Assembly (NCBI GenBank): GCA_017610205.1 | Contig: JAFCCL010000001.1 | Coordinates: 172,327 to 236,326 of the forward strand | DNA from: Candidatus Iainarchaeum sp. | GTDB taxonomy: Archaea; Iainarchaeota; Iainarchaeia; Iainarchaeales; GCA-2688035 | Length of the DNA: 64,000 nt | Direction: 5' to 3' | Part shown: one piece after another, positions 6,560 through 34,458 of the stretch | Position numbering within the stretch: the first letter of the stretch is position 1 | How the letters are laid out: every line of letters begins with the position of its first letter | Notes under the pieces: model-generated | The model's input: the letters and a program-made list of their open reading frames with translations, nothing else | Told to the model about the DNA's origin: nothing | The model's database searches: none | Translations under genes and position numbers: made by a program

Positions 6560-6687
6560 AATAGTTAAAAAAACCGCTTGGAAATAGTTTAAATACATTC
6601 CATTCCAGCTAATCTTATAGAACATTTTTTTTCCTCGAAAAATAAAGCGGCAAAAAGCAAACGCTATCTTGTCGCAAAAAAAATTAT

Positions 6688-6771
6688 GCCAACGTGGCGG
6701 AGTGGTCAAACGCGCTCGCCTTGAGAGCGAGAGTCCGAGAGGGCACGCAGGTTCAAATCCTGTCGTTGGCG
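6688..6771 (+). tRNA. tRNA-Ser(TGA)
   Basis: GCCAACG/CGTTGGC acceptor stem, CTCGC-CTTGAGA-GCGAG anticodon arm, long variable arm, GGTTCAAATCC T-loop, no encoded CCA. Confidence 0.97.
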
Positions 6772-6839
6772 TCTTTCTCCAATTCAATCGCCCTTGCCCC
6801 CTGCATTTAAATGGGTTTCGGTTGAGGGAGATGAAAAGT

Positions 6840-9376: not shown

Positions 9377-9476
9377 ACAGAAACCTGTTCCCAGCGTTTA
9401 AATAGGTTTTGTGAAAAAATTAAGCAGAAAGCATTGCAAGCTTTATTTAAAAATAGTTTCAAATAGGCTTATTCTT

Positions 9477-10859: not shown

Positions 10860-12020
10860 GGGCAGCTTCTTTTTAATACACACTTCATAAAATTGAGCAA
10901 ACGTCTTTTTTCCCATCAGAAATTCTTGGTAAGGAGAATAAAGCTCGCCGTCAAACAAAACTTCCATTTCGCCACTGTTTGGCTTTAAAGCAGGCAAGCC
11001 GTAAATAGCATCCTTGACTGTTATAAATGAAGGCAAACCATCAGAGCCATCAGAAAATAGTGGCTTAGGTGAAGCCAACTTTGTTTCAGTTCTAAACCCA
11101 GTAATGAAAACTCTTCTCCTCCTCTGAGGAACACCATATTCTTCAGCCTTAAGTTTCCAAGGCTCATTAACATGATAACCAATGCCCTCAAAAGCCTCAA
11201 CTATTTCTTTAAGAGCTGCTCCTTTTCTCATAGAAAGTATGCCTGGAACATTTTCCATCACAAAAGCTTCAGGTTTTATTTTTTTGACTAAGTCAACAAA
11301 GTGAACAAAAAGGTCATTGCGTGCATCCTTTGGATTCCTCCAACCAGCATGAGAAAATCCTTGGCAGGGTGGACCTCCAACCACTACACCAATTTTGTAT
11401 TTTTTTGCTAGACTGGAAAGTCTTTCTTTATTTTTATTTTCGCGAATATCGCCTAGTATACAGAAAGCAGGATCTATTTCAGGATTGTTTTTGAGGAATG
11501 TTTCAAAAAAGCGTTTTTCTATTTCAATGGCTCCAACAACATCAAAGCCCGCTAGTTTAAATCCTTCAGAAAAACCACCTGCACCGGAAAAAAGGTCGAT
11601 TGTTTTGTCGCTATTAACATGCTTCTTGACTTCTGTTGCAACTGCTCTTGCTAAGAGTGGAGGAACAGCATTGCCTATTTGTTTAAACTGTGAAGTTTTT
11701 GCGCCATGAAAAATGAAATTGTCTTTGAATGATTGCAGTCTTGCACCTTCTCTTAGAGAAATAAGTCTGTTTTGGGAAGGGTGTATATGGCAACCGTTTC
11801 CAATTCTGTTAAAGTATGTTGAAATAGTGTAACTTGGTTTGTCATATCGTAAACGACCATAATAAGTGGTTCTGCCACCGCTTTCTCTTATTTGCTTTAA
11901 ACGTTGTGAAGGAATGTGCGGAGGGATGCTTGCCCAATTTCCCCCCGGCGGGATGTGGTTAACCATCTGCATTTCTAATTGGCTAAAGCCGGGCGTTATA
12001 TGGTTATGTAGTTTTCTCAT
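10845..12020 (-). CDS. DNA cytosine-5 methyltransferase, circularly permuted (M2.Eco31I-like)
   Basis: Motifs IX/X (REGARLQSF, QIGNAVPP) precede motif I (DLFSGAGG), IV (GPPCQGFS), VI (ENVPG) and VIII (QRRRR). Confidence 0.9.
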   Translation of the reverse strand: MRKLHNHITPGFSQLEMQMVNHIPPGGNWASIPPHIPSQRLKQIRESGGRTTYYGRLRYDKPSYTISTYFNRIGNGCHIHPSQNRLISLREGARLQSFKDNFIFHGAKTSQFKQIGNAVPPLLARAVATEVKKHVNSDKTIDLFSGAGGFSEGFKLAGFDVVGAIEIEKRFFETFLKNNPEIDPAFCILGDIRENKNKERLSSLAKKYKIGVVVGGPPCQGFSHAGWRNPKDARNDLFVHFVDLVKKIKPEAFVMENVPGILSMRKGAALKEIVEAFEGIGYHVNEPWKLKAEEYGVPQRRRRVFITGFRTETKLASPKPLFSDGSDGLPSFITVKDAIYGLPALKPNSGEMEVLFDGELYSPYQEFLMGKKTFAQFYEVCIKKKLPSYLF

Positions 12021-13971
12021 TGTAAAACAGCCTAATATAGTTAATTTCTCTAGAATTTAAACCATACTGTTTGAAAATCTCTTCCTCAAGTTTTTCATTA
12101 TTTTTTGCATCTAAAAGCCCTTTTTGCGGGAGGATGATGGGCAATTCTCCTAGTTCGTAGTTACTTATATGATTGTTGTAGTTTGATATTTTGAATCGCC
12201 AGTTCAATAATTTTGAGTTCAACAGCTTTACGAGAACCTCGTTAGAGATTCTTTTATCTTCACTCAAAAGGTAATTGCAAGAATTTGCAACAATAGTACT
12301 TTCTGGCACCATTCTAAAATTTAGTTTTTTAACTAAATCCACGTTAGCAATTTGCTGGCCGGCAATTCTCTCCTTTTGGATGTCCTCTATTTTGTTTGAA
12401 CTGACTTTAGTTAGAAAGTTTTTTTGAACGAAAGCTTTTTTCGCAGTGCTTTTTATATCTTTTCCTCTAACCAAAGACAGGAGCGTTTCTCTCTCCGTTA
12501 TATACTTTTTGTCCTGAGTTAGGTCTAATTCGCCTCGTTTGTTTCTGATTAGCGTAAATTCTTTTAGTTTTTTGAAAGAGTTGAGCTTTTTTAGAACAGA
12601 CCATCCAACTGAATCTAACAACGGTATTTCTAATTTTGAGAAATTTTCTTTTATGTCGTTTATGTCAATCAGAACCTTTTCATCGTTTTTATTATGAAGT
12701 ATTGATTCCATTTTACTTGTTTTCTCACCCTTTTTTACTTGAATTATCACTAATGATTGATTAACATTTTGAAAAAGCTGATTCTGTTCTTTGAAAAAAT
12801 GCACTTTACTCAAATTACATTCAAGCAAAAGAGCTTTTCTTAAATCATAGGCACTGGAATCCCCTAGTAAAGTTGAAGGTATTATGGCTCCAATTGAACC
12901 TTGACTATTTGTTATCTTCAAGGCAATTTCTAAAAACAAACGATAATAGTTCAACATTCCTTTAGCTGAAAGAGGATATAGCTTTGAATTGTGAATAAAA
13001 TTCTTTTCCTCTTCTACTCTATCCTTTTCCTGTTGATAAATTTCATTCAAGATTTTGGGCGAAATTTCTTTTGTTGATGCCGTGAAAAAATCACTTCTGT
13101 TTATTTTCAAAACTTTGTAAGGAGGATTCATAACAACCGCGTCAAATCCGCCTTGATTTTCAAAAACGTTTTTGAACGCGCTAAAGAAAGAGAATCGCTT
13201 TTTAGGGGATTTGCTTAAACCATAAATAGCGTTCCCAACAACTATCTGCTTCTGCAACTTCTTTATAGCCTCTAATCTTTGTTCTTTGGGAAATTCGTTT
13301 GCAAGTCTTAGGATTGTTATATCAACGGAAATAGAATCAATATCAGTACCATACAAGTTATTCAAAGCTTTGTCTTTATCTTTTGCTAAAGCCAGACAGG
13401 AAAGGAGGAAACGGCCAGTACCACAACCTAAGTCAATCACTTTGTTGTTCTCCACATCCTCCACAGTTTCACTACAAATAAGATTAGAAATTTCTTTTGG
13501 AGTAAAAAATAGACCTTTTCCTTTTAGTCCTGTTTTCTTTTTCTTAATCTTTCCATTCTCAAAAAACTTTGAGTTAAACCATTGCTGTTGTTCAACCAGC
13601 GTATCCAAAACATTAGAAAAGTGGTTTTTAGTTTTTTTCTCAAGTTTATCTACAAGGAGTGAAGTAGAAGAAGAATCAAAGGTATTGAAGAGCCCTTCCT
13701 TTTTAACAAAATTCTCAAACTCAGAATATGTTTTAAATTCCATATTCCAGCTATTAAACCACCGATAAATCAAAAATTTTACAATAGTTTCATGCACCCT
13801 TCTATGCGATTCCTTAAATTTTGCTAGAATAGGCTCTTGTAAAAGCTCTTCCTGTTCCAGAGATTCTAATAACTGCAAATCCTCAACCACCGTATTATAG
13901 ATGGAAATACCGCTTTTAAATCTATCAAGAGAGAGGGTTTCCGGTGAAATATTAAAAAGTGCGGCAGTCAT
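12004..13971 (-). CDS. DNA adenine-N6 methyltransferase, Alw26I/Eco31I/Esp3I family
   Basis: FFTP, DLGCGTG (motif I), MNPPY (motif IV), RGELDLT, C-terminal NNHISNYEL. Confidence 0.9.
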   Translation of the reverse strand: MTAALFNISPETLSLDRFKSGISIYNTVVEDLQLLESLEQEELLQEPILAKFKESHRRVHETIVKFLIYRWFNSWNMEFKTYSEFENFVKKEGLFNTFDSSSTSLLVDKLEKKTKNHFSNVLDTLVEQQQWFNSKFFENGKIKKKKTGLKGKGLFFTPKEISNLICSETVEDVENNKVIDLGCGTGRFLLSCLALAKDKDKALNNLYGTDIDSISVDITILRLANEFPKEQRLEAIKKLQKQIVVGNAIYGLSKSPKKRFSFFSAFKNVFENQGGFDAVVMNPPYKVLKINRSDFFTASTKEISPKILNEIYQQEKDRVEEEKNFIHNSKLYPLSAKGMLNYYRLFLEIALKITNSQGSIGAIIPSTLLGDSSAYDLRKALLLECNLSKVHFFKEQNQLFQNVNQSLVIIQVKKGEKTSKMESILHNKNDEKVLIDINDIKENFSKLEIPLLDSVGWSVLKKLNSFKKLKEFTLIRNKRGELDLTQDKKYITERETLLSLVRGKDIKSTAKKAFVQKNFLTKVSSNKIEDIQKERIAGQQIANVDLVKKLNFRMVPESTIVANSCNYLLSEDKRISNEVLVKLLNSKLLNWRFKISNYNNHISNYELGELPIILPQKGLLDAKNNEKLEEEIFKQYGLNSREINYIRLFYNEKTT

Positions 13972-14177
13972 CTGACCACCGCTAAAATCTTTGTTTTTTC
14001 CCTGTTTACTTCTTCTTCGAGAAGTTGATTGAGTTTGGCTGCAAGCTCTGCCTTGCATTCAACTAAGTCGTCTGACTCGTCAAGCTCAACAGAAGCTCCG
14101 AGGCAGATACCTTTAGTTTCGTAGTTCCCAAGATTCACTTTCTGGGAAAGGTTCATGGAAAGGCTTCTCACATTCAT
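13968..14177 (-). CDS. Small hypothetical protein (element backbone)
   Basis: KVNLGNYET motif; ATGA overlap with the MTase start. Confidence 0.6.
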   Translation of the reverse strand: MNVRSLSMNLSQKVNLGNYETKGICLGASVELDESDDLVECKAELAAKLNQLLEEEVNREKTKILAVVR

Positions 14178-17621: not shown

Positions 17622-17921
17622 TTGAACAAAAAATTAACAATACTGTTCCTGGCCCTGCTATTAGTTCTGCCAATCGCTTTCGCTGAAGGCGATGTAACAG
17701 CCATAACAGAGCCATTGACCAGAATCTATGACTTGCTGAAAGGAGTTGTTTCAGTCGTGGCAGTCATAGCCATAACAATTGCCGGTGCCAGATTTATGTT
17801 CTCAGGCGACAACATCCAGCAAAGAGAAGCAAGCAAAACAATGGTAGGCTACTGCATAATGGGCTTGGTAGTCGTATGGGTTGCACCATTAATGGTCAGT
17901 TACTTAACAGCCCCAATATAA
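17622..17921 (+). CDS. VirB2/TrbC-like pilin
   Basis: Signal peptide (AFA), two hydrophobic helices around GARFMFSGDNIQQREASK; GAGGTGA RBS. Confidence 0.8.
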   Translation: MNKKLTILFLALLLVLPIAFAEGDVTAITEPLTRIYDLLKGVVSVVAVIAITIAGARFMFSGDNIQQREASKTMVGYCIMGLVVVWVAPLMVSYLTAPI

Positions 17922-17937
17922 AAGGAGGAATGTACAA

Positions 17938-18927
17938 TTGAACAGAAAAATTTACGAAGTGTGCGTTCCCTTCCTTTTTCTGATGTTTCTCGGCAGAGCC
18001 TTTGCATTAAATGAACCAATGCCGCCGCCAATAGTAAATATTGACTTGGGAATAATATCAGAAGCAATAAACCAAATGTTCACAGGACTAACCCAGTCAC
18101 TAACAGAACTGCCCGCCGCCGTAGTAAACCAATTCCTTGCCTCACTACAAAGCCTTACCGCAAACTTTCTTACAACCCTACTGTTAATAGCAAAAGAGTT
18201 TATAACAACAAACCCAGACATCGCACCAATGTTTCCACTATGGCAAACAATAGTTTACATAATTTCACTATTCTACCTAATACTCTTTCTCATAGTAGGC
18301 TTCTTTTTCTTATTCAGCTCAATTGACGCAGAAAAAAGAACAAGCGCAAAAAAATGGTTCAAAAGCACAATCATAATGATTGCCGCAGTCGGCGCATCCT
18401 TCCAACTATACGAAATATTTCTAGCAATAGGAGCAGGAGTAGCTACATATTTATGGGCATCAGAATTCGAAGTACTATTCCAAGCAAGCGAACTCACAGC
18501 ACTAAACCTAATCCTGCTAACAGTTTACAGTGGAGCAGTCCTCGCCGCATTCATAACACTTTTCATCAGACACCTGTTCCTTGTAATGGGCGCAGCAATA
18601 TTTCCAATAGCCCTATTCTTCTACTTTATAGAACCGCTAAAACCCTGGGGGAAAATGCTGCTCGAAATTCTCTTCGCCGCAGTCCTCATGCAAATAATTG
18701 ATGTAATAATCTTCATCGGCTCACAAATTGTCTGGGAACAATTCATAGGTCTGCCAGACATTGCAGGCTGGGCGCCAACAATGGCCTTTGGCTTAGTCGC
18801 AATCATAAACACAATAATAATTGCATTCGCAGTAATAAAAGCATCAAAAACAGTAACCCAACAACTACCAGAAGTAGTCGCCGTAGCAAAAATGGCAGGC
18901 ACAGCCGCAATAGGAGCAATAGCATGA
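17938..18927 (+). CDS. VirB6/TrbL-like polytopic membrane protein
   Basis: Multiple TM helices, FIRHLFLVMGAAIFPIAL motif; directly after the pilin. Confidence 0.7.
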   Translation: MNRKIYEVCVPFLFLMFLGRAFALNEPMPPPIVNIDLGIISEAINQMFTGLTQSLTELPAAVVNQFLASLQSLTANFLTTLLLIAKEFITTNPDIAPMFPLWQTIVYIISLFYLILFLIVGFFFLFSSIDAEKRTSAKKWFKSTIIMIAAVGASFQLYEIFLAIGAGVATYLWASEFEVLFQASELTALNLILLTVYSGAVLAAFITLFIRHLFLVMGAAIFPIALFFYFIEPLKPWGKMLLEILFAAVLMQIIDVIIFIGSQIVWEQFIGLPDIAGWAPTMAFGLVAIINTIIIAFAVIKASKTVTQQLPEVVAVAKMAGTAAIGAIA

Positions 18928-18952
18928 ATAAAGAGGTGAAAGAAAAATGAGT

Positions 18953-19195
18953 TTATGGTTTTTTTCTTCTGTCTTCGCCGCTTCTCCGTTCCGAAAATTC
19001 TCCAGGGTAGTTTTCTGCAGGTTTTGGTTTTTTAAGTTTCTTAAAAACCTTTTGTCGCAACATGCCTGGCAAGGTAAACCACTCCACGCGTTCTTTTGCA
19101 TGAGGAGGAGTACTGTGCCTTCTTTCTTGTCCTGTTCTTCTCTCTTTTCCACTTCTCCTTTCCGGACCGGTATATTTAGGTTTTGGTCTTGGCAT
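18953..19195 (-). CDS. Arg-rich micro-protein with ERR/DRR repeats
   Basis: YTGPERRSGKERRTGQERR...SERRSGEDRR; GGTGA RBS upstream. Confidence 0.65.
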   Translation of the reverse strand: MPRPKPKYTGPERRSGKERRTGQERRHSTPPHAKERVEWFTLPGMLRQKVFKKLKKPKPAENYPGEFSERRSGEDRRKKP

Positions 19196-19254
19196 CCAAT
19201 TTCACCTATAAACTCTACACATTCAAAGAATTTAAACCTTTGCAGGTGTGACTA

Positions 19255-20193
19255 ATGCCTTACGAAATACCCCAAAACCTAAAATACAAAGAAAAAATTG
19301 CCTTCAACCTCACATTCGAACAAATGGCCTGGCTTGGAGTGTTCGGAACAATAGCCGCAATAATTTACCTAAAAACAGGCCTGCCTTTTCCGATAAAAGA
19401 AGGAATTGCACTATTGATTGCATCAATTGGATGCGGGTTTGCATTCCTAAACTTTACAGAACACCTAAAAACATTCAGAACCTACAAAAAAAGCATTAAC
19501 AAAGCAGGCTATTTTGACCCAAAAATGCGCCAGCTCGTCGACGTCAAAAAAATAGAAAAGGACGTAATCTTCTTGAAAGACGGTTCAATGAGAGCCTTGC
19601 TGCAAATTACGCCATTGAACTTTTCAATGCTTTCAAAAAACGAACAGCAGGCAATAATAAAAGCCTACAAAGACTTTCTCAACAGCATGGACTTCACAGT
19701 ACAAATAGTTGCAAGAACAGTAAACCTCTCACTCGAAAGCTACCTCAGAACACTTCACGAAAAAGCAGTTCAATCAAAAAACGAAAAATTAGTCGAACAA
19801 TTCGAATCATTCAGAGAATTCCTAAACCAATTCATAGAACAAAACGCAGTCAAAGACCGGCTGTTCTATTTGGTAATTCCAAACAGCCAAGAAAACGGAA
19901 TTTTCCTATTTAAAAGCCAGCAAAAAACAGAACAATCCCTAAAAGAATTAGACATCAGAGTAAAGTTATGCCAGCAAAAACTCAAAAAATGCAACCTCCT
20001 CACAAAACACCTGAACTCGGAAGAGCTCACCTCACTTATGGCTAGCTTCTTTCACGGATTCATAGAAGCCCAAAACGAATACTTCTTCCCAACAACAATG
20101 CTAAAAAAATTCGAAAAACAAAACCCAATTAGAAAATGGATTGACCTAAACGGTTCAGAACAAACAATCCAAAACGCAGGAGTGACAGCATGA
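19255..20193 (+). CDS. PrgI/VirB3-like membrane protein with TraC/VirB4-N-like soluble domain
   Basis: YEIPQNLKYKEKIAFNLTFEQM plus two TMs; PLNFSMLSKNEQQAII..YKDFLNSMDFTVQI. Confidence 0.75.
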   Translation: MPYEIPQNLKYKEKIAFNLTFEQMAWLGVFGTIAAIIYLKTGLPFPIKEGIALLIASIGCGFAFLNFTEHLKTFRTYKKSINKAGYFDPKMRQLVDVKKIEKDVIFLKDGSMRALLQITPLNFSMLSKNEQQAIIKAYKDFLNSMDFTVQIVARTVNLSLESYLRTLHEKAVQSKNEKLVEQFESFREFLNQFIEQNAVKDRLFYLVIPNSQENGIFLFKSQQKTEQSLKELDIRVKLCQQKLKKCNLLTKHLNSEELTSLMASFFHGFIEAQNEYFFPTTMLKKFEKQNPIRKWIDLNGSEQTIQNAGVTA

Positions 20194-20372
20194 ACGAAAC
20201 ACTTGATAGCAAATGGAAAAAAGCAATAATACAAATAGCAACAGAACTTCGCAAGGCTAATCAAATAAGTGCGGTAATCGGAAATGGGCTATTAGGAAAA
20301 GAGATTGGTCAAATAAAAGAAAAAAAGAAAAGATTCAGCGAAATAGAAAAAATAAGAAAAGGCGTTAGCTAA
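20190..20372 (+). CDS. Small hypothetical protein
   Basis: ATGA overlap with the upstream gene; GGAGTGA RBS. Confidence 0.5.
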   Translation: MNETLDSKWKKAIIQIATELRKANQISAVIGNGLLGKEIGQIKEKKKRFSEIEKIRKGVS

Positions 20373-20385
20373 TTATTGTTTTTAA

Positions 20386-21696
20386 ATGGTTTCTTGCTCA
20401 TTTAAGAATATGGAGTTAGATGAAGATGAAACAATTACTCTGAAAGATGCTGTTTCTCGAGAAGGAGCTTTTCTTAGAGATAAATTAGCGGAACATTTTA
20501 GTGATGACAACCTTTTAGAAGTACATGCAATAGAACATCCTGTTTGTTTTGATGGTCAAAAAAGAAGAATTGATCTTATTCTAAAAACTAGGAAAAGAGG
20601 TATATGCCCGTTTGAAATTTTTTTTGTAATCGAAGTGAAGAAGCTAAACCGCAAACATTCTGCAATAATAAGCTTTGGCGATCAAGAGAAAAGAGATTTT
20701 TTCTATGCAAGTGTTTTAGGCGCTGACCCGGAAGTAAAAATTATTCGAGAAAAGCAAAGAAACGTAATTGAAACAACCAATAAAATAGACTTTTTTAGTG
20801 ATTTTTGTGCCTTTGACAAAAAAATTTTAGAAAAAGTAAAGAAACAGAAACCAAAAGCAATACTTTCTAATGTAAGACTAAATCGTAAAGACGAAACCAA
20901 TCAAGCTTTGCAACAAGCATATCAAGGAACCTGTGGATTTCTAAAAGAATTAGAAACCAAATATGGCGTTGGTTTTAAGCGACTTTCAGGTGGAAAATTA
21001 GAAATTGACAGAAACCGGTATATTATCCCTGTTGTAATAACTACTGCTGAGTTTACTCTTGCATTATTGGATTTGAATAAATATTCTCTAGAAACAGGCG
21101 AATTCAAAAACGAAAGCCTAAAGTTAAAACCAAGTAGTTGGCACGCTATAAAATATTCAGAAGCCCGATTAACAGCTATTGAAGACCCATTTGTTGAACA
21201 AGAAATATTTGTTGTGAATACAAGCAATCTTGACAAGTTCTTTAAAGAAATAGTCGCCTCTGTATTGCGCCACCATTTCAAATTTACTCAATTAACTCAA
21301 AGGAATAAAAAAATAGGGCCCTTAATTAAAAACCATAATGACAAAATAAAATCTATAAAATATGTCGATATCCTGCATTTAGTTACCAAAAAGAACCTGT
21401 GGGGCAGATTTAGAGATTGGTTTAAATCGGATTTGATAAATGATGAAAATCCATTCGGTTTGGAACGACTTAAAACCGATTTAGACGATAGAATAAATTC
21501 AGATCCAGATCTTTTCAAGCTTACAGTATACTTAGTTTCTATTTACTACAATGACAAATGGGTGTCTGGTTCACCGCAGTCCTTAGAACTTTGGCTAGGA
21601 GCGAACTACTATCGGCATATTATAGAATTTTTCGATTTTTTGAAGCTTTCCGATATACAAGAGCTTGTCTTTGAAAAGAAAAATTATTCTGTATAA
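20386..21696 (+). CDS. PD-(D/E)xK nuclease-like protein
   Basis: RRIDLILK...FVIEVKK and downstream ALQQ helix. Confidence 0.55.
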   Translation: MVSCSFKNMELDEDETITLKDAVSREGAFLRDKLAEHFSDDNLLEVHAIEHPVCFDGQKRRIDLILKTRKRGICPFEIFFVIEVKKLNRKHSAIISFGDQEKRDFFYASVLGADPEVKIIREKQRNVIETTNKIDFFSDFCAFDKKILEKVKKQKPKAILSNVRLNRKDETNQALQQAYQGTCGFLKELETKYGVGFKRLSGGKLEIDRNRYIIPVVITTAEFTLALLDLNKYSLETGEFKNESLKLKPSSWHAIKYSEARLTAIEDPFVEQEIFVVNTSNLDKFFKEIVASVLRHHFKFTQLTQRNKKIGPLIKNHNDKIKSIKYVDILHLVTKKNLWGRFRDWFKSDLINDENPFGLERLKTDLDDRINSDPDLFKLTVYLVSIYYNDKWVSGSPQSLELWLGANYYRHIIEFFDFLKLSDIQELVFEKKNYSV

Positions 21697-21744
21697 CCTT
21701 TTCACTCCTCCTTTTTATACTCCTTGAGTTGAGTAATAAGGCTT

Positions 21745-23973
21745 ATGTCAAAGCAGACTCAAAGTATCTTGGAGCCTTTACTAAAGCCTTCTTTTGTCAA
21801 GAATTCGCCGGACTGCATTCAGATAAACGAAAACTATAATCGCATTATAATGGCTGTCGGCTACCCGCGACAAATAGAAGAAGGCTGGCTTGACCGAATA
21901 ATTTCTTCGGAGGGAAGCTTTGATTTAAGCATGTTTATTGAACCTGCCTCAATTGAATTCATTTTAGGGGAATTAAACAAAGAGCTTGTGAAACAGAAAA
22001 GCGACATCATGGCAGCTGAACTAAAAGGAATTGTAAACCCCATCCTGCGCGTTCAGTATGAAGACACCTACACAACACTGCAAAGACTACAGACCGGTGA
22101 AGAAAAGTTATTCAACTTTTCTTTTTATGTAAATGCAAGAAGCTATGACAAAAACGAACTGAACTTGTTGAGCAAAAAGATTGAATCAGAACTCAATAGC
22201 ATAATGATTATTCCAAAAACACCCTATCTCAAAATGCAACAAGGCATCCAGTCAATTGTGCCAGTCTGCAAGGACAGACTTCGCGCTCAAAGAAACATTC
22301 CAAGCAACGCACTCTCAGCCTGCTTTCCGTTCACCTCGCGCTTTTTGAACCTTGACGAAGACGGAGTAATGTTTGGTGTAAACCAATCAAACAACATTCC
22401 AATAATCCTAAACCAATACAAGTTCACAAATTACAACGGTATTGTTTTAGGAAGCAGTGGTGGAGGAAAAAGCTTCTTTGTCAAGCTTTACATTATCCGC
22501 AATCTTTTGAAAGGAATGCAGACATACATAGTGGACCCGCAAGGGGAATACTCAGAACTGACACAAAAATATGATGGTCAGATTGTAAGCATTTCAAGAA
22601 AAAGCAAAACCATAATCAACCCATTGGACTTAATGGACCGTGATTTTGGCGACAAAATGCTTTCTTTAATGGACTTGTTCAAAATAATGTTCGGCGAACT
22701 AACAGAAGTGCAAAAAAATGTTCTGGACAAAGCACTAATCAAAACATATGAGCAAAAACACATTTTACCAAACCAGCCTGAAACATGGAACGCAAAACCA
22801 CCAATCCTGGAAGACTTGTACAATGTTTTGGAAAAAGAATCAAAGAGCACAAACAAAATTGAAAAAATGACATATGATGCTTTACTCAACAGGCTGAGAA
22901 TTTATGCAAAAGGAAGCTTCTCATTCCTAAACAAGCACACCTACCTTAACCTTGAAAAAAAGCTTATCTCATTTAACATAAAAGAAATGCCTACCCAAGT
23001 CAAGCCCCTAATGATGTTTCTTATACTTGACTTTATTTACGAAAAAATCCAAAAAGACCACGAAAGAAAACTTATTGTTGTGGATGAAGCATGGCAGCTG
23101 CTCAGATACGGAGAACACGCAGAATACCTGTTTAAAATATGCAAAACAGCAAGAAAATTTGGTGCGGGACTAGCAATAATTACCCAAGAAGTCAACGACT
23201 TACTAAATTCACAGGCTGGAAAGACCATTTTAGCTAATACTGCCTGGAAACTGTTAACAAGACAAGAACCAGCAGTAATAAACGAGCTAATAGAAAAATT
23301 CAACTTAAACAAAGAAGAAAAAAACTTTCTGCTGACAGTTGATGCCGGCGAAGGCCTGCTGTTTGCAATGAATGACAGAATTCCAATCAAAGTTGTGGCA
23401 TCTGAAAAAGAATACGACATTATCACAACAAACCCAGAAGACCTGAAGAAAAGGCAAGTGTTAAGAGAAAAAATTTCACTAGAAGAAGACTTCAACGAAG
23501 AAGTCTACGGACTAAAAAAAAGCTATTATCAAGTTAACGAGTTAAACGAAAAGCAAATTGCGTTCCTAAAAGCAAACGGCTATAAAGAATCAAGACAGCT
23601 TGGTTTAGAACCAGGAGGCGCACACAAATACCTAATAGGCATGCAACCAGAAAATGAAGGAACAGACCACGCATTTCTTGTGCAACTACTTTACGAGGAA
23701 ATCAGCAAAAAAACAGACAAAGTAATGCGCTACGCCGTTCAAAAACCAGACCTTGTTTTTGTAGCAAACGAAAAAAGATACGCAATCGAAGTAGAAACAG
23801 GAAAAAACCTCTCAGACAAAAACAAAATGAAAGAAAAATCAAAAAAACTAAAAGAATTTGAACAAGGACTATTCGTAGTAACCGACTGGAAACTAAAAAC
23901 AAAATACAAACAATACGGAAAAACACTCGGAAGATTCGAAGTAAAAAAAGAATTAGAAAAATTGTTTCGCTGA
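21745..23973 (+). CDS. virB4: VirB4-like conjugative ATPase with C-terminal PD-(D/E)xK-like domain
   Basis: GSSGGGKS Walker A, VDPQGEY, VVDEAW Walker B, ARKFG, ITQ; C-terminal DHAFLV...KPDLVF...AIEVETG. Confidence 0.9.
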   Translation: MSKQTQSILEPLLKPSFVKNSPDCIQINENYNRIIMAVGYPRQIEEGWLDRIISSEGSFDLSMFIEPASIEFILGELNKELVKQKSDIMAAELKGIVNPILRVQYEDTYTTLQRLQTGEEKLFNFSFYVNARSYDKNELNLLSKKIESELNSIMIIPKTPYLKMQQGIQSIVPVCKDRLRAQRNIPSNALSACFPFTSRFLNLDEDGVMFGVNQSNNIPIILNQYKFTNYNGIVLGSSGGGKSFFVKLYIIRNLLKGMQTYIVDPQGEYSELTQKYDGQIVSISRKSKTIINPLDLMDRDFGDKMLSLMDLFKIMFGELTEVQKNVLDKALIKTYEQKHILPNQPETWNAKPPILEDLYNVLEKESKSTNKIEKMTYDALLNRLRIYAKGSFSFLNKHTYLNLEKKLISFNIKEMPTQVKPLMMFLILDFIYEKIQKDHERKLIVVDEAWQLLRYGEHAEYLFKICKTARKFGAGLAIITQEVNDLLNSQAGKTILANTAWKLLTRQEPAVINELIEKFNLNKEEKNFLLTVDAGEGLLFAMNDRIPIKVVASEKEYDIITTNPEDLKKRQVLREKISLEEDFNEEVYGLKKSYYQVNELNEKQIAFLKANGYKESRQLGLEPGGAHKYLIGMQPENEGTDHAFLVQLLYEEISKKTDKVMRYAVQKPDLVFVANEKRYAIEVETGKNLSDKNKMKEKSKKLKEFEQGLFVVTDWKLKTKYKQYGKTLGRFEVKKELEKLFR

Positions 23974-28587: not shown

Positions 28588-29685
28588 ATGGATATAGAAA
28601 AGCTAAAAACACTTGCCCTTAAACTTCAGGGCGAATTATTAACTTCGAGTAGAAAATATTTGTCAGATGAAAAAATATCACATACCAAATTGATAGACCT
28701 TCACGAAAATGCGCAAAAAATACTGCCGGACCATAAAACCCTTTTTGAAAGACATATAGAAACTTTAAAAGATCCAATTCTGTATATAACAACAAAAGAA
28801 GCAGCCGATTTATGTAAAGATATTTTTGAATATGCTATTTTAGAAGACGATAAAAAGGAAAAAAGTGAAACACTCGCTAAAGACCCACTTACTGATTTAT
28901 TTGAAAAGAATAAATTAGCGGAGTTAGATTTTTCTAAATATAAAGAACTTTCAATTGCCTTTCTTGATTTAGATAATTTCAAAAAAATAAACGACAAATA
29001 CAAACATAATAAAGGCGATCTTGCACTAATACAAGTTGCCTCTGCACTAAAGGAAATTGTAGGAAAAAATCATTGGGTTTTAAGAAACCACGGCAGTCGA
29101 GGAGATGAGTTTATAGTTGTTTTTTTAGATTTAGAGAAAGAAAAAGCATTTAGATTAATTGAAGAATGCAGAAAAAAAATAGAACACAATAAAGTTGAAA
29201 ATTTCAACATAACAGTTAGCATCGGTATTGCATCATATCCTAATGATGGAAAAACTCTAAATGAGATTATAGAAAAAGCCGATGAAGCAATGTATCTTTC
29301 TAAAGAAAACGGAAGAAATTGCACGACTCTCTATGATGAAAGCATGGTAAATGAAATAGAAACTATTAATTTTAGACTTGAGGAAATTGCTAATATAAAA
29401 AATGGGGCTAAAGTCATTGTAAAAAGTTGGAAGTGTCATCAGGCTCCTAATATAACTAATTTAGAAGCAATCGAACTAAGAGACTTAGATGAAGATATCC
29501 TGTATACTAGTAGAAATAAAGGCGGAATGGCGACTATTATAACCATTGAAAAAGAAATTCGTGGCGTTGTTAGAGGGGTTAAAAGGCCACCAGGGCAAAC
29601 GTTATTTGAATTAGTGGTTCAAAAAAAGCAACTAGAAGGAATTTCATCAGATCCAAAGGATTTTTTGAGTCCTTTAGTTAGATAA
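28588..29685 (+). CDS. GGDEF-domain (diguanylate cyclase-like) protein
   Basis: DPLT, FLDLDNFKKIND, GD, RGDEF, TVSIGIA, ADEAMYLSKENGRN. Confidence 0.85.
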   Translation: MDIEKLKTLALKLQGELLTSSRKYLSDEKISHTKLIDLHENAQKILPDHKTLFERHIETLKDPILYITTKEAADLCKDIFEYAILEDDKKEKSETLAKDPLTDLFEKNKLAELDFSKYKELSIAFLDLDNFKKINDKYKHNKGDLALIQVASALKEIVGKNHWVLRNHGSRGDEFIVVFLDLEKEKAFRLIEECRKKIEHNKVENFNITVSIGIASYPNDGKTLNEIIEKADEAMYLSKENGRNCTTLYDESMVNEIETINFRLEEIANIKNGAKVIVKSWKCHQAPNITNLEAIELRDLDEDILYTSRNKGGMATIITIEKEIRGVVRGVKRPPGQTLFELVVQKKQLEGISSDPKDFLSPLVR

Positions 29686-29815
29686 CTAATAGTAATCCAT
29701 ATCTCATTAAGACCACCTTGCCGAAAAGTTAATTAACTTCCTTGCACTATACTGTTTCTGCATAATAAATTCAGCCGGCCAAGGCAGTGGTGGGCGTTTG
29801 ATTTTGGGGAAGAAG

Positions 29816-29828
29816 CCTGTCGTTGGCG
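29816..29828 (+). repeat. attR (duplicated tRNA-Ser 3' end)
   Basis: CCTGTCGTTGGCG identical to 6759-6771. Confidence 0.9.
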
Positions 29829-29856
29829 AAAAAAATAATTATTTAAACGAGATATT

Positions 29857-30288
29857 CTATTGTTTCGGTGGCTGAAAGGTTTCCAAGTATTTTTTGACTT
29901 CTGACTGACAGTTCTGTAAAAAAGAATCTATGTTTTGGGTTGGGTTGATAAAAGAAGTAATAGATAAAATTAGTGGGTTTTCTGCTTGAATTCTTTCAGA
30001 TTTTTGTTTCGCAGTATCGAAAGCATAAAGACAGGTTTCTTTAACGACTTCGGTTGGAGCATATTTTTCAATACAAGCCCTGTACTCATGCTGGCATAAG
30101 CTGGTGGCAATATCTTCTTCCCTGTGGAGAGGAGCGTAAAGAGAAATCATTTGATAGGATAAGACCTTACCCCGATTGTCGACAGTTTTCCTTGCATCCT
30201 GCTGGATACTCAATCCGTGTAAATAAAGTGCTGAAAGTAAGGCAACAACAAGTAGGGCAGATACAAAAACAATTCTTTTTGAAAGCAT
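29857..30288 (-). CDS. Membrane-anchored hypothetical protein
   Basis: N-terminal hydrophobic helix, four Cys. Confidence 0.6.
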   Translation of the reverse strand: MLSKRIVFVSALLVVALLSALYLHGLSIQQDARKTVDNRGKVLSYQMISLYAPLHREEDIATSLCQHEYRACIEKYAPTEVVKETCLYAFDTAKQKSERIQAENPLILSITSFINPTQNIDSFLQNCQSEVKKYLETFQPPKQ

Positions 30289-30461
30289 TTAGTTTCTTAG
30301 GCACTTTCCCCTATTTTATTCTTTTGCTTTGATTTAAATTGTTTTGCCTGCAAAAGTAACTAAAGCTTAAAGCGTTTACATAACAACAGTTAGCGTGTCG
30401 TTGGTGTGATATCATAAGATATCTTTAAATATCTTTTGCTTTTTATTCTATTTGTGGTTGC

Positions 30462-30695
30462 TTGAGGAAAGAACAGTACAAAATAGTGTTGACGCGGCAT
30501 GCCTTTATTAGAGCAATGCAGCGTAAGGTAAGCCCTGACTTAATTGAGGATACCCTGCAAACTGGAAAAATGAAAAAACATGGTAAAGGCAGAGTAAAGT
30601 TTGAGAAGCGTTTCAAGCAATTCGCAGTAATATGTGTTGATGAAATAACTGGAAATGTGATTAAGATTGTTACAATTGAAAAAAAGAGGTGGTAA
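30462..30695 (+). CDS. DUF4258/RelE-like toxin
   Basis: LTRHAFIRAMQRKVS...IKIVTI. Confidence 0.7.
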   Translation: MRKEQYKIVLTRHAFIRAMQRKVSPDLIEDTLQTGKMKKHGKGRVKFEKRFKQFAVICVDEITGNVIKIVTIEKKRW

Positions 30696-30697
30696 TT

Positions 30698-30994
30698 ATG
30701 AACTGTACAAAATGTGTTGGAAAAATGGTTGAAAGAAAAGGCAGCACGCCTGAAGGGATTGAATACGCATACTTCAAATGCAGAAAATGCGGTGAAGAAA
30801 TAGTTGATATGAAGCAATTGCATTCAGTTGCCCAAAAATACAGGGAAATGAAGAAATACACTGCCAAAATCAGCAAGTGGGGCGAAAGCTTTGCAGTAAG
30901 AATACCAAAAGAACTAGTCAAACAATACAAACTAAAGCAAAACGAAGACGTAACACTTGTTCCGGAAAAGAAAGGAATAAAGATAGTGGCCTAA
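30698..30994 (+). CDS. Zinc-ribbon plus AbrB/MazE antitoxin
   Basis: CTKC...CRKCGE and KWGESFAVRIPKEL. Confidence 0.8.
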   Translation: MNCTKCVGKMVERKGSTPEGIEYAYFKCRKCGEEIVDMKQLHSVAQKYREMKKYTAKISKWGESFAVRIPKELVKQYKLKQNEDVTLVPEKKGIKIVA

Positions 30995-31001
30995 AGTCAA
31001 A

Positions 31002-31181
31002 TCATTTCTTTTCCACCACTACTTTTCCTTTGTCAAGCTTCCACGCCAGTTTTTGTTTTTTGCCGTCTGTGTTTAACTCAAGCACGTTTAGGGCAATGTC
31101 TCTTGGAATAGCTGTTCTGAAATAGGCTTTGTTTTGGCTCCAGTGTGGAGTTACTGTGCTCTGGGTTTCAAGCTTTGGCAT
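31002..31181 (-). CDS. Small AbrB-like protein (59 aa)
   Basis: Manual translation MPKLETQSTVTPHWSQNKAYFRTAIPRDIALNVLELNTDGKKQKLAWKLDKGKVVVEKK; TAATG coupling to the upstream gene. Confidence 0.6.
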   Translation of the reverse strand: MPKLETQSTVTPHWSQNKAYFRTAIPRDIALNVLELNTDGKKQKLAWKLDKGKVVVEKK

Positions 31182-31864
31182 TAGCTTCTCCCTTTTTGAA
31201 TTGGTTTTTGGGGAATAAAAATACTACGGCCTGATAGCATATTTTGCAACCCATAAGTGGAAAATAAATCTGAAGCATCCAAGATTATCTTGAACCCAGC
31301 TTGTGTTAAATCTTCTCTTCTAATATCACCAACCCTGTCTGTTGAAACAATTAAGTATCCGCCTGATTTAAGTGAAGCAAGAATGCCTTCCAAAGCAATT
31401 TTGTTGTTTGCCCGATAGTTTCCCAAACTCCAATTAGAAACTATTGCATCAAAATTTCTTCCATTAAATAATCTTCCAACATCTTCAAATTCGCCCTGTT
31501 TGCCTTCAATAGGAGCCCTTTCGTTCACTTCAAACCTATCCATTACAGTCATTTTTGCTCCTAAGCTATGAAGCACTGTAGTAAAGTCGGCGGTTGGTGA
31601 ATCAACTTCAAGAATCCTTTTTCCTTTGAAAGAACCAAACATTTTTCTCATAGAACAAAATAATGGAGCATAACCCGCGCAATTGTTTACCTTCAACCTA
31701 TCTAATCTTTCACTAGCAGTACCCAAACGCCGTACAGTTAAACCAAACTTTGACACAAGCTTTTTTCTACCCTTAATAGTAAGACCAATTCTTCTCTCAG
31801 GCCCACAAACTTGTGCAAGCTCTCTATTCTGAATTGTCTTTTTTTTCTTTTTTGCTCTTTGCAC
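31181..31864 (-). CDS. Class I SAM-methyltransferase-like protein with basic N-terminus
   Basis: GKRILEVDS (degenerate motif I), FDAIVS, LKSGGYLIV. Confidence 0.6.
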   Translation of the reverse strand: MQRAKKKKKTIQNRELAQVCGPERRIGLTIKGRKKLVSKFGLTVRRLGTASERLDRLKVNNCAGYAPLFCSMRKMFGSFKGKRILEVDSPTADFTTVLHSLGAKMTVMDRFEVNERAPIEGKQGEFEDVGRLFNGRNFDAIVSNWSLGNYRANNKIALEGILASLKSGGYLIVSTDRVGDIRREDLTQAGFKIILDASDLFSTYGLQNMLSGRSIFIPQKPIQKGRS

Positions 31865-32027
31865 CTAAGTTACCAACTAAATGCCATAACAAAACTTTTG
31901 TTAACAATTATTTTTAAATCTATTTTTTAAATAGAACAAAGGCATTATTTGATTAGGTTTAGCGTTGAACTCACTGGCTATTAGCGTGTCGTTGGCAATT
32001 CAATAGAATTAAATAGAAGAAAACAAT

Positions 32028-32309
32028 ATGTTATTTATGAATGTAAAATCAAGGAATCTAGGAATAAAATATAGGGTTAAAAGGAATCCTGGGCGTAGAA
32101 CAAAAACAGTCTCTATTCTAAGCGGTCCGAATAAAGGTAGGCAAATTATTGAAAGAAGGGGTCTAAAAGCAGGCTCGGCAGGACACTTGGGTAAACCCTC
32201 TGGCGTAACAGGATTAGGTGGACAAATACACGAAAATTTTGGTGTAACACATCGCGGAACAACAAAAGCAGCGCTAAGAAGAATCAGGGGATTAAAAGAA
32301 AATAAGTAA
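32028..32309 (+). CDS. Small basic hypothetical protein
   Basis: K/R/G-rich ORF filling the cassette between att-core repeats. Confidence 0.5.
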   Translation: MLFMNVKSRNLGIKYRVKRNPGRRTKTVSILSGPNKGRQIIERRGLKAGSAGHLGKPSGVTGLGGQIHENFGVTHRGTTKAALRRIRGLKENK

Positions 32310-32377
32310 AAAAACGCGATAAAAACAATTTTAGAAAAGAATAGTGTCGTTGGAAACGCCCTATTCGGTTAAAATTC

Positions 32378-32701
32378 TTATTTTTTTTGTTTTGACTCAA
32401 GTTTTTGAATAAGACCATCAATTGCTCCTTCAATGAAAGAATCCCTGTCTCTTTGAAGTTTTCTCAATCCCCTTGAAACAATTTCAGAGTCTTTTCGATT
32501 TAAAGCAGGAGCGTAAGAATGCAATTCTAAAGTTGCTTTTCTGCGTTGCTGCAGTGTTCCATTTTTTAATACAGCTATTCGGCTTTGGACTACTTGCAAT
32601 AGCTTGCCCCCTGAAATTTTTTTCAGAGGTGCTTGTTGAGACACTTTATTTTTTTCGGATTTTAGATACCTTCTAAAAACCGAGGTAATGTTTTTAATCA
32701 C
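32378..32701 (-). CDS. Small basic hypothetical protein
   Basis: 107-aa K/R-rich helical ORF. Confidence 0.5.
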   Translation of the reverse strand: MIKNITSVFRRYLKSEKNKVSQQAPLKKISGGKLLQVVQSRIAVLKNGTLQQRRKATLELHSYAPALNRKDSEIVSRGLRKLQRDRDSFIEGAIDGLIQKLESKQKK

Positions 32702-32811
32702 AATAATAACGGTGTCTTTTCATCTATTTTAGTTTTTCGGTAAAGCTTTTTTCCTTTTTTATAGTTTCGGTTATTTAATTTTATATAGTTCTAATTAGAA
32801 GTGATTTCAAA

Positions 32812-33396
32812 ATGCCAAAGAAGCAAGAGCCTGTCAAAGAAGAGCAAATGCCTGATTCCCTTGAGGAAATTGTCGATGACATCCACGAGACAAGCAAGGA
32901 TATTGACGAAATTCAGGAAGACGTTGACGAAATTCAAAGCGATGTCAAGGAAATCAAAAAAAGCCAAAAGTCTTTGCTTAAAAGAATGTCTTCAAGGCTT
33001 GTACCAGACGAATTTGCATGGGACGACCTTGCACAGCAAATTGTTGGAGCAATGATTCTTTCAACACCACTTGCAGTAACACAGGAAGTTTGGGTTCTTT
33101 CACAACAGCTTGACATTTTAAGGCTTTTTGCAATTATTATTATAACACTTGTATTTGACATTTTGCTGATTTACCACACAAAATACCAGCTTGTAAAAGA
33201 ACAAAAAATCCTTTCATTTATTCCACTAAGACTGGCTTCTCTGCTGATTGTTTCCTATACAAGCGCAGCCTTAATGCTGTTGATTTTTGGAGTAATAGGA
33301 TACGAAATAACAAGCCCTTTTGGCATACTAAAACTAGTAATCCTCGTAGGATTGTTTGCAAACATTGGAGCAGGAACAGCAGACCTGTTAAAATAA
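32812..33396 (+). CDS. DUF2391-like integral membrane protein
   Basis: DLAQQIVGA..LSTPLAVTQEVW...GAGTADLL. Confidence 0.7.
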   Translation: MPKKQEPVKEEQMPDSLEEIVDDIHETSKDIDEIQEDVDEIQSDVKEIKKSQKSLLKRMSSRLVPDEFAWDDLAQQIVGAMILSTPLAVTQEVWVLSQQLDILRLFAIIIITLVFDILLIYHTKYQLVKEQKILSFIPLRLASLLIVSYTSAALMLLIFGVIGYEITSPFGILKLVILVGLFANIGAGTADLLK

Positions 33397-33439
33397 ACCA
33401 TTCTTTAAAAGGCTTTTCAGCCACTTTCTTTTTACCCCT

Positions 33440-33523
33440 GCAGGGGTGGCTGAGCGGTCTAAAGCGCACGCTTGGAAAGCGTGTTTCTTCACAGAAGCGC
33501 GAGTTCGAATCTCGTCCCCTGCG
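33440..33523 (+). tRNA. tRNA-Ser(GGA)
   Basis: GCAGGGG/CCCCTGC stem, CACGC-TTGGAAA-GCGTG anticodon arm, long variable arm, TTCGAAT loop. Confidence 0.97.
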
Positions 33524-33574
33524 ATATTTATTTTAATCGATTGGTTTAAATTAGTTAATAGACTATATGTTAAT

Positions 33575-33712
33575 ATGGAAACTGTTACTATTATGAAAAA
33601 AGAATATGATTTGCTTAAGAAAAAGGCAAATCTTGCTGATGATGTCCTGCTACAATTGAAGGCAAGTCTTAAAGACATTCAAGCTGGCAGAATCAAACCG
33701 TTTGACCACTAG
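33575..33712 (+). CDS. Small antitoxin-like protein (45 aa)
   Basis: METVTIMKKEYDLLKKKA...SLKDIQAGRIK. Confidence 0.65.
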   Translation: METVTIMKKEYDLLKKKANLADDVLLQLKASLKDIQAGRIKPFDH

Positions 33713-34014
33713 ATTTGTTCAACGAATTTCATATACTTTTTCTTATTCTGCAAAATATGGTTTATTATCTCTTGTTGTTCTTTTTTTAATCCAAAAGCCA
33801 CCAAAAGGACAAGACCGGTTTTTTTGTAAACAAGATAGTATAATCGCTTTCCGCCAAATTTTTTTTCCCGAAACCAGTTGAATTTCAATGGTTTTCCAAC
33901 TAAGAAACTTTCCTTTAACTGCTGAGCCACTTTCTTAATCCATTCTTGTTCACTCTTTTCAAGCGTCTCAAACAAGCGGGAAAATTCTTCGGTCTCCAAA
34001 ACCTGGTTTGGCAT
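33709..34014 (-). CDS. RelE/ParE-like toxin
   Basis: ETEEFSRLF...GKPLKFNWFREKKFGGKRLYYLV...LLVAFG.KKEQQ. Confidence 0.7.
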   Translation of the reverse strand: MPNQVLETEEFSRLFETLEKSEQEWIKKVAQQLKESFLVGKPLKFNWFREKKFGGKRLYYLVYKKTGLVLLVAFGLKKEQQEIINHILQNKKKYMKFVEQI

Positions 34015-34148
34015 ATTATTATTGAATTCAAAGTTTATTTAAGACAAACGCGATAAAGTTTCAAAATCTCGTCCCCTGCGTATTAACCTTATGACGGCAC
34101 ACCAACGGAAAGCCTTTAAACGTTTTTCGATTGAGGAGGTGCTGTCAT

Positions 34149-34345
34149 ATAAAAACATACATTCACGATTACGACAGAAGTCTTGAACGAGAAATACTCA
34201 ACCTCAAGCCTTCTCAAGTATCGGAACACAACAAGAAGCTCATTATTGAGTTCTAAGACTATAACTATACAAGAAAAATTTCCAAGCCAAGAATGGTTAG
34301 GCAAATAAGCATACTAAAAATGACTGGCAGTTCATGCAAAAGGAA
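34149..34345 (+). pseudogene. Integrase N-terminal remnant (homolog of 6840-8036)
   Basis: IKTYIHDYDRSLEREILNLKPSQVSEHNKKLIIEF*DYN...PRMVRQISIL aligns with MREYIHPYKKNLEREIQRIKESELLGDNKQLILKFYQHN...PRMERQACVL; internal TAA at 34254. Confidence 0.85.
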
Positions 34346-34458
34346 TTAAAAGAGGTATTTGTAAAATTATGTTAAAAGTTGTTTGAAAAGCAGGCGCTCA
34401 TTCCATAAACAGTATTGGGTGTTTTTTTTGGAAAGTTTATAAAAAAACGTGTTCAAAG

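Follow-up and report, generated by a model that had tools for sequence, protein, structure and literature searches.

Probable tandem accretion of an ICE-like island and CIME-like mini-units behind a tRNA-Ser gene of a small-genome archaeon

The subject of this report is a window of 64,000 nucleotides from Candidatus Iainarchaeum sp. (assembly GCA_017610205.1, contig JAFCCL010000001.1, positions 172,327 to 236,326 of the forward strand; positions given below are those of the window), and in particular the DNA that follows the 3' end of its tRNA-Ser(TGA) gene. The locus is a product of tandem accretion, in which one island that resembles integrative and conjugative elements (ICEs) is followed by three to four miniature units resembling cis-mobilizable elements (CIMEs), and it is not an integron. 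We consider it rather probable that the short copies of the tRNA end which separate these parts are attachment (att) cores from repeated site-specific integration at this 3' end, and that the small units are CIME-like in this sense. That the host is an archaeon follows from the archaeal large-subunit (LSU) rRNA and the archaeal RNase P RNA in the window and from introns in the same tRNA genes of several relatives; its genome is small (1.37 Mb, 37% GC).

Attachment cores and the 23-kb island

The tRNA-Ser(TGA) gene is located at 6687-6773 on the plus strand, and the attL core is made up of its last 13 nt (6759-6771, CCTGTCGTTGGCG). Within it, the 9-mer TGTCGTTGG starts at 6761 and comprises the last three bases of the T-stem and six of the seven bases of the acceptor stem. 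The same 9-mer occurs five times in the window (6761, 29818, 30396, 31987 and 32345), always on the plus strand, against 0.22 copies expected by chance, and none of 100 shuffles contained five or more. The four downstream copies had been predicted from the DNA letters to be intergenic and in one orientation, which was borne out by exact search; every core copy sits between open reading frames (ORFs) taken as genes. A genome-wide count, proposed at that stage as a check, gave nine copies in 1,369,834 bases (24 contigs), five of which are those of the window, while the remaining four are dispersed on the opposite strand. Since the reversed control motif is found 18+11 times on the two strands as compared to 5+4 for TGTCGTTGG, the latter is not a common word of this genome.

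The 13-mer is present exactly at 6759 and 29816, whereas 11 of its 13 positions agree at 30394 (core copy 2, 30394-30406) and at 31985 (core copy 3, 31987-31995, compared over 31985-31997), and the match at 32345 (core copy 4, 32345-32353) is limited to the 9-mer. Identity to the tRNA end thus decreases with distance, from 13 via 11 and 11 to 9 of 13, which is expected if the distal copies are older. The cores are spaced by 578, 1591 and 358 bp, in agreement with the unit sizes of about 0.58, 1.6 and 0.36 kb given in the original prediction. A further feature noticed at that time, a shared 15-nt sequence (TTAGCGTGTCGTTGG) at the copies at 30396 and 31987 with an AGCGTT upstream, is present as well, the hexamer lying at 24-25 nt.

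The two exact 13-nt repeats enclose an ICE-like island of about 23 kb (6772-29815), for which the copy at 29816 serves as attR. A tyrosine integrase gene (6840-8036, plus strand; Pfam PF00589, E 2.2e-18) starts about 66 nt behind the tRNA gene and is preceded by a leader (6782-6835) that contains a TATA box and TTTCGGTTGAGG and scores 36 bits with the family profile described below. At the far border, the attR region (29792-29828, plus strand) combines a P-arm motif, GGGCGTTTGATTTT (29792-29805), with the core (29816-29828); the island has both a tRNA-adjacent tyrosine recombinase domain and a distal repeat of the tRNA 3' end. According to Pfam matches, its cargo includes an Alw26I-type restriction enzyme, two DNA methylases, a nuclease, a TrmB regulator and a GGDEF protein, next to genes of type IV secretion system (T4SS) type, i.e. 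for a TrbC/VirB2-type pilin, a PrgI-family protein and a VirB4/TraG-type ATPase; a relaxase family was not matched in the Pfam scan of the ORFs. The restriction and methylase genes (C5 methylase, Eco57I-type methylase, Alw26I-type enzyme) and the T4SS-type genes are found at 9411-14058 and 17622-23973. The last gene of the island, adjoining attR, encodes the GGDEF-domain protein (28588-29685, E 1.3e-29), which is unusual as the cargo of an archaeal element.

Relatives of the integrase are present in 89 of the 196 genomes of the order (E<=1e-30). Among the 30 best loci of this family, 23 are preceded on the same strand by a tRNA gene, whose end is in most cases no more than about 130 nt from the start codon, and the tRNAs concerned vary, with Asn, Lys, Leu, Asp, Ser, Pro, Thr, Cys, Tyr and Met among them. 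The spacer between tRNA and integrase is conserved in the family and consists of a short motif, a TATA box and TTTCGGTTGAGG. A leader profile built from 13 loci, with the locus of this island excluded, detects four sites in the genome. Two of them are the leaders of the island integrase and of a paralogue on contig 18, another is on contig 17, and the remaining one belongs to an integrase stump in the window (34102-34141). At the contig 17 site (G000:C17:113878-113920, E 2e-5) no clear integrase was found by tblastn; this may be another stump or a divergent integrase.

Contents and att arms of the small units

Unit E2 (0.58 kb, 29829-30393) consists of a 143-aa orphan ORF on the minus strand (29857-30288) and a right arm of its own type. 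Unit E3 (1.6 kb, 30407-31984) carries a toxin-antitoxin (TA) pair on the plus strand, followed in its right half (31002-31864, minus strand) by a 59-aa ORF (31002-31181) and a methyltransferase-like ORF (31181-31864) that overlap by 1 nt (TAATG), and by an E3-type arm extending to 31986. Unit E4 (0.36 kb, 31996-32344, plus strand) has a basic 93-aa orphan ORF (32028-32309). Gene strands along these units are -, +, +, -, -, +. Behind them is a possible fifth and oldest unit, E5 (32354 to about 32790), which had not been recognized in the original prediction. It contains a 107-aa ORF on the minus strand (32378-32701) that is missing from the loci of relatives, and its left end resembles the left end of unit B in the metagenome contig L088. 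The distal core of E5 is not recognizable and its right boundary is uncertain; a candidate decayed core near 32757-32772 received no clear support from alignment with the flanks of relatives. The chromosome resumes with a gene for a DUF2391 membrane protein (32812-33396, plus strand), the conserved right flank of the att site.

The contents predicted for these units were recovered in part. The TA pair, the basic micro-protein and the methyltransferase-like ORF are there, all Pfam matches of the last being below cut-offs, whereas a separate AbrB gene was not confirmed: the AbrB-type domain resides in the antitoxin. The 59-aa ORF, when considered as an AbrB gene, gave no Pfam match even at E 5. 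The proposed membrane protein of the 0.58-kb unit corresponds to the 143-aa ORF, which has no Pfam match, its hydrophobic N-terminus being judged by eye only. The cargo is rare in the order: including this genome, the 143-aa ORF is present in four of the 196 genomes (with weak matches, the best other one at E 1.8e-5), the methyltransferase-like ORF in two and the 93-aa ORF in two. Comparison of the unit proteins with NCBIfam and PHROGs gave meaningful, though weak, matches for the antitoxin only.

That the units lack an integrase was correctly predicted. Between 29827 and 33400, tblastn with the island integrase (E<=10) detected neither an integrase nor a fragment of one, and a Pfam scan of all ORFs together with tblastn revealed no integrase, excisionase or transfer genes in the small units. 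The leader profile found nothing behind cores 1, 3 and 4, and behind core 2 a score of -1.1 bits, which is reached by 1.1% of random windows. A TTTCGGT seen by eye 37 nt after core 1 was considered as a leader remnant; the profile search did not support it. At the unit ends, no attC-type hairpin, consistent inverted repeat or terminal inverted repeat was found, and the Pfam scan of the region showed no transposase or Cas1.

When 70 nt on either side of 15 core sites were compared, the right (P) arms fell into four types, those of the island, E2, E3 and E4. The island type occurs in this genome and in the metagenome contig L087. The E2-type arm with its core is found in E2, in the sister species G004, in unit C of L088, and in G002 (L247) and L166, which are identical in sequence and, at tRNA-Ser(TGA), have it following a gene with a Fic-like HPFxDGNGR motif (recognized by eye). 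The E3 type is present in E3 and in units A and B of L088, and the E4 arm has AAACGCGATAAA in common with the arm (34046-34058) of a unit at the neighbouring tRNA-Ser(GGA) gene. Four different cargoes accompany the E2-type arm, and three the E3-type arm. At three attR sites of the integrase family in this genome (the Ser-TGA island, Arg-GCG and Asp-GTC), GGGCRYTTGATTT is located 9-12 nt before the identity block, and the Ser-GCT attR site has a weaker TTGATTTC, 3 nt before the block. Because E2 and E3 possess GCGTTTAC and GCGTTGAAC at matching distance, 24-25 nt from the core, the small units are, as judged from sequence, terminated by real att arms of this integrase family.

An example of similar ends around different cargo is provided by E2 and unit C of L088. 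Their first 25-50 nt or so are weakly alike and their last 80 nt or so are 68/79 identical, whereas their ORFs are unrelated (BLASTP E 19) and identity in the interior is about 40-50% in a gapped alignment of AT-rich sequence. The right arm that they share includes a promoter-like word which is found elsewhere in these genomes.

The TA module of E3 (30408-30994, plus strand) consists of an operator and TATA box (30408-30431; operator GATATCATAAGATATC), a toxin gene (30462-30695) and an antitoxin gene (30698-30994). The toxin matches DUF4258 (E 2.5e-4, below the Pfam cut-off), and the antitoxin combines a zinc-ribbon with a MazE/AbrB domain (E 1.6e-9). Full-length relatives are widespread: of the 30 best loci in the order, 28 have both genes. 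The TATA box and operator that belong to the pair are also conserved across the order. Nucleotide similarity among this genome (G000), G004, G005 and G007 begins exactly at GATATC-N4-GATATC (then TTTAAATA) and ends at the antitoxin stop codon. The module begins 1-3 nt after a tRNA 3'-end copy at four different tRNA ends in six genomes: Ser-TGA in G000 and G004; Leu-GAG in G005, where the 11-nt repeat returns 194 nt after the stop codon and delimits a 0.79-kb unit with a family-type arm; Ser-CGA in G007, with a 14/16 copy 76 nt behind that tRNA; and Cys-GCA in G170, where it follows a 9-kb element with an integrase, and in G096, where a 2.2-kb unit precedes it. In a blind comparison, which left out G004 because its operator was outside the scanned stretch, a tRNA-end match of at least 10/11 was found at 4 of 15 operator loci as compared to 1 of 300 random windows. 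No relative of the antitoxin was found in viral contigs, and an empty-site comparison for G005 yielded no detectable similarity between its flank and the tRNA-Leu(GAG) flank of this genome.

The TA genes of G000 and G005 differ by 0.51-0.58 at synonymous sites, against 1.43 for the chromosomal DUF2391 gene, and those of G000 and G007, which belong to different genera, by 0.72-0.91. These values are noisy, since the TA genes have only 76-98 codons and the distances are near saturation. As far as sequence divergence can tell, it is suggestive, not firm, that the TA unit moved between the lineages after their split.

The same site in relatives and stacks at other tRNA genes

In relatives, the chromosomal gene order around the site is conserved (GMP synthase, tRNA-Ser(TGA), the DUF2391 gene, tRNA-Ser(GGA), tRNA-Leu(GAG)). 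The site is empty in G005 (same genus) and G017 (same family), where the DUF2391 gene follows 36 and 97 nt after tRNA-Ser(TGA). In G004, a sister species of the same genus, the TA pair alone is located between cores, in a 0.65-kb unit with the 11-nt copy TGTCGTTGGCG as its distal core, and is followed by the DUF2391 gene; its toxin and antitoxin are 87% and 90% identical at the amino acid level to those of the present genome. In L087 an island-type right arm and core are joined straight to the chromosomal flank without small units, and L088 has a different stack, with units of 4.8, 1.0 and 0.5 kb, none of which carries an integrase of this family, and a degenerate last core (TGTTTTTGG). Gain and loss of units exactly at the repeats was what had been proposed to look for, and the breakpoints in G004, G005, G017, L087 and L088 indeed fall exactly at cores.

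Scans with the DUF2391 protein of the metagenomes and of the genome collection yielded three and five true full-length relatives, respectively, among 80 loci each, the other loci matching the low-complexity acidic N-terminus only. The DUF2391 gene of G004 (L011, G004:C59, 2727-3265) matches as two overlapping pieces, which may be due to a frameshift or an assembly error. An intron of about 68-110 nt interrupts the tRNA-Ser(TGA) gene in G001, G004, G006 and G017, and in G018 as derived from a split match, and is absent from G000, G002, G003 and G005, so that a single genus includes genomes with and without it. Between the GMP synthase gene and this tRNA, a non-coding stretch of about 150 nt (6094-6244) is 93-94% identical in two genomes of the same genus, in which the protein gene beside it has only about 72% identity. 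It folds into a long hairpin (about 6157-6215, z -3.35), has no Rfam match even at E 1, and may be a small RNA or a terminator.

A second small stack, also missed in the original prediction, is present at the next tRNA gene (33439-34346, plus strand). Here tRNA-Ser(GGA) (33439-33524) is followed by a 0.54-kb unit with ORFs at 33575-33712 (plus strand) and 33709-34014 (minus strand), a 16-nt copy of the tRNA end (34065-34080), an integrase leader (34102-34141) and an integrase stump of 66 aa (34149-34346) that is 38% identical to the island integrase. A comparable arrangement exists in G007 (L058, C84, 582-1500), where a 0.77-kb unit without integrase, bounded by CTCCCGGGGCTA, is located between tRNA-Thr(CGT) and an intact integrase which is 70% identical to that of the island. 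Downstream copies of tRNA 3' ends also occur at other tRNA genes of this genome (contigs C18, C13, C17, C10 and C16): at +4239 for tRNA-Arg(GCG), with an integrase paralogue beside it, at +2056 for tRNA-Asp, at +2137 and +5309 for tRNA-Ser(GCT), and at +85 for tRNA-Leu(TAG), while at tRNA-Ala(GGC) the end copies are spaced by 95 nt.

Origin of the units and relation to known systems

The original prediction of serial site-specific events at one tRNA gene is supported by the bounds of the island, the tRNA adjacency of the integrase family and the position of the breakpoints. In the mechanism that we propose, the tRNA-targeting tyrosine integrases of this family would recombine the short tRNA-end copy of an element (9-13 nt at this locus) with the chromosomal core, by which the tRNA would not be damaged and the older core would be shifted downstream together with all that follows it. 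The 23-kb island would be the newest arrival. Units E2, E3 and E4, and possibly E5, which are located behind it, are flanked by cores and end in a right arm of the family type, and would be CIME-like by definition: their att sites repeat the 3' end of the target on both sides (29816, 30394, 31985 and 32345; 9-13 of 13), and the tandem in which they stand includes an element with an integrase that uses this core. Such units would be incapable of moving by themselves; since every unit is bounded by cores, an integrase borrowed from a neighbour, such as the island, could in principle excise, re-insert or co-transfer them. The TA pair probably helps its unit, and hence the stack, to resist deletion.

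Several observations weigh against this proposal as it stands. Units E2 to E5 contain no integrase fragment detectable by tblastn (E<=10) and no leader remnant detectable by the profile, so that their descent from integrase-bearing elements is assumed. The junction of the TA module 1-3 nt after four different tRNA ends is not explained by plain recombination between homologous cores; possibilities are that the integrases are tolerant to mismatches, as has been found for Tn916 and CTnDOT, whose integrases accept mismatched crossover regions, or that TA-led elements have swapped their att modules. An intact integrase-bearing element carrying this TA pair was not found, the two sharing a contig only in G170, where the TA pair is outside the element; the contigs on which this was judged are short, which weakens the significance of the absence. 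Finally, E2-type units adjoin the chromosomal flank in L088 and G004 and not in this genome, which implies that strict stacking with the newest unit nearest to the tRNA is insufficient and that integration at inner cores or fusion by deletion must be added.

The review PMC5704250, citing Pavlovic 2004 and Bellanger 2011, describes a pathway in which an element, after its integration, decays to a CIME with attL and attR still in place, and is joined by another element that integrates at one of its att sites; excision and transfer of such composites have been observed. This sequence of integration, decay and new integration would fit the present locus by analogy. As with the CIMEs of that review, the units lack genes for integration and transfer, keep att sites on both sides, and are stacked with an integrase-bearing element of conjugative type at the 3' end of one gene. 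Differences from the CIMEs described there are the archaeal host, the size of the units (0.36-1.6 kb, one to four genes), the identity blocks of only 9-13 nt, the lack of a remnant that shows descent from an ICE, and mobilization that is putative.

A rather unlikely but serious competitor is that the units are purely erosion scars of full islands, immobile, with the TA pair being kept because its loss kills the cell. At least some erosion is evident, as illustrated by the 66-aa integrase stump at the next tRNA and by the degenerate distal cores here and in L088, and the orphan cargo (4, 2 and 2 of 196 genomes, including this one) is typical of decaying mobile DNA. The E2-type arm on the TA unit of G004 is most simply explained by a deletion that fused two neighbouring units, and decay is the usual origin of such tandems as stated in PMC5704250 and 10.1101/2020.12.28.424599. 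On the other hand, the units have no remnant of an integrase or leader, even though such remnants are detectable where present, and two units that are alike in both arms carry unrelated ORFs. Mini-units also occur between a tRNA and an integrase-bearing element, which would require that the younger element decayed faster than the older, and the low divergence of the TA pair (0.51-0.58 against 1.43 for the DUF2391 gene, in short genes with noisy values) points to recent transfer of a unit. Erosion and the moving of CIME-like units both fit the published definition of a CIME, and the data do not decide between them.

The absence of integrase remnants and the combination of conserved right arms with variable cargo would also be expected from dedicated capture, in which the tRNA core is a fixed site where a resident integrase routinely shuffles cassettes, much as the original prediction suggested by calling the accretion integron-like. 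Recent transfer of the TA pair and the position of mini-units proximal to integrases can be cited for it as well, and the junction of the E2 arm, core 2 and the TA module reads like the attP of a circle formed from the TA unit of G004. Nevertheless, we consider this improbable and the label did not hold: the unit ends have no attC-like hairpins or terminal inverted repeats, both strands are used and the TA pair has its own promoter and operator, so that there is no common promoter, the integrase belongs to an ordinary mobile island instead of a fixed platform and is lacking at the sites in relatives, and some of the cores have decayed. Much less probable still are target-site duplications from cut-and-paste or casposon-like transposition at tRNA 3' ends. 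The TA units of G004 and G005 are flanked by exactly 11-nt repeats that end at the last base of two different tRNAs, and the left boundary of the module is constant within 1-3 nt, as transposition might produce; however, neither terminal inverted repeats nor a transposase or Cas1 (Pfam, in the region) were found, the right ends of the TA units differ by tRNA type and have the arm motif of the integrase family, and repeat length varies from 9 to 16 nt. That the motif has clustered by chance, or has a regulatory role that has nothing to do with recombination, is hardly credible, in spite of its being short (9 nt) and always intergenic, in view of the lack of five copies in any of 100 shuffles, the identity with the tRNA 3' end, the gain and loss of DNA exactly there, and an inconsistent position upstream of some genes and downstream of others.

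Integration at the tRNA-Ser(TGA) end with CIME-like units also has parallels among tRNA-associated elements of other organisms. In the tycheposons of Prochlorococcus, rows of elements at tRNA genes are divided by partial tRNA copies (10.1101/2020.12.28.424599). The likeness extends to a streamlined genome, elements with tyrosine recombinases at tRNA genes, newer elements that displace the older ones inward, and the occurrence of fragmented integrases and of stray partial tRNAs. Unlike here, the hosts of tycheposons are bacteria, their att sites are about 40 nt long, and their units carry integrases or visible remnants thereof, neither of which is present in the small units. Arrays formed by re-use of one integration site are known for archaeal tyrosine-recombinase elements, which also have tRNA genes as their main target and direct repeats down to 8 bp (PMC6563490), but the elements described there are proviruses, casposons and elements of ICE size, and sub-kilobase units without an integrase are not among them. 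The tRNA fragments that integration leaves in archaea are treated as pervasive in PMC9897764. Keyword searches of open-access titles and abstracts gave no description of sub-kilobase integrase-less units at tRNA genes of small-genome archaea, which is not proof of their absence from the literature. Tandem accretion is thus an already known way of building islands, which is found here in an archaeon and in unusually miniature form.

Small recombinase-less units at one site, with TA cassettes within the stack, are characteristic of chromosomal integrons, with which the locus shares the combination of a constant recombination element and variable cargo as well as the presence of a TA module in the stack. 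It differs from them in having no attC hairpin and no fixed intI/attI/Pc platform, in the mixed gene orientation and the use of own promoters, and in employing a tRNA end as recombination site. A more far-reaching possibility, which we put forward tentatively and regard as rather unlikely, is that small-genome archaea hold recombinase-less mini-cassettes that are moved by borrowed integrases, as a tRNA-anchored working analogue of the integron. A mini-cassette would then comprise no more than its cargo (one gene or a TA pair), a conserved arm some 40-90 nt long and a tRNA-end copy. The TA-led cassette would be the most successful one, re-targeting the Ser-TGA, Leu-GAG, Ser-CGA and Cys-GCA ends while keeping its left boundary within 1-3 nt, which would require an integrase that tolerates mismatched crossover regions.

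For this archaeon with a genome of about 1.4 Mb, the accretion means that a single spot behind one tRNA accounts for much of the gene variation between strains at this locus, in units that may comprise just a single gene. Foreign DNA can be delimited by as little as a 9-nt repeat of a tRNA end, which matters for the annotation of such genomes. Should borrowed integrases still move the units, this would provide a simple route for single-gene exchange in organisms with very little other mobile machinery, and TA pairs would then be the 'glue' of such stacks.

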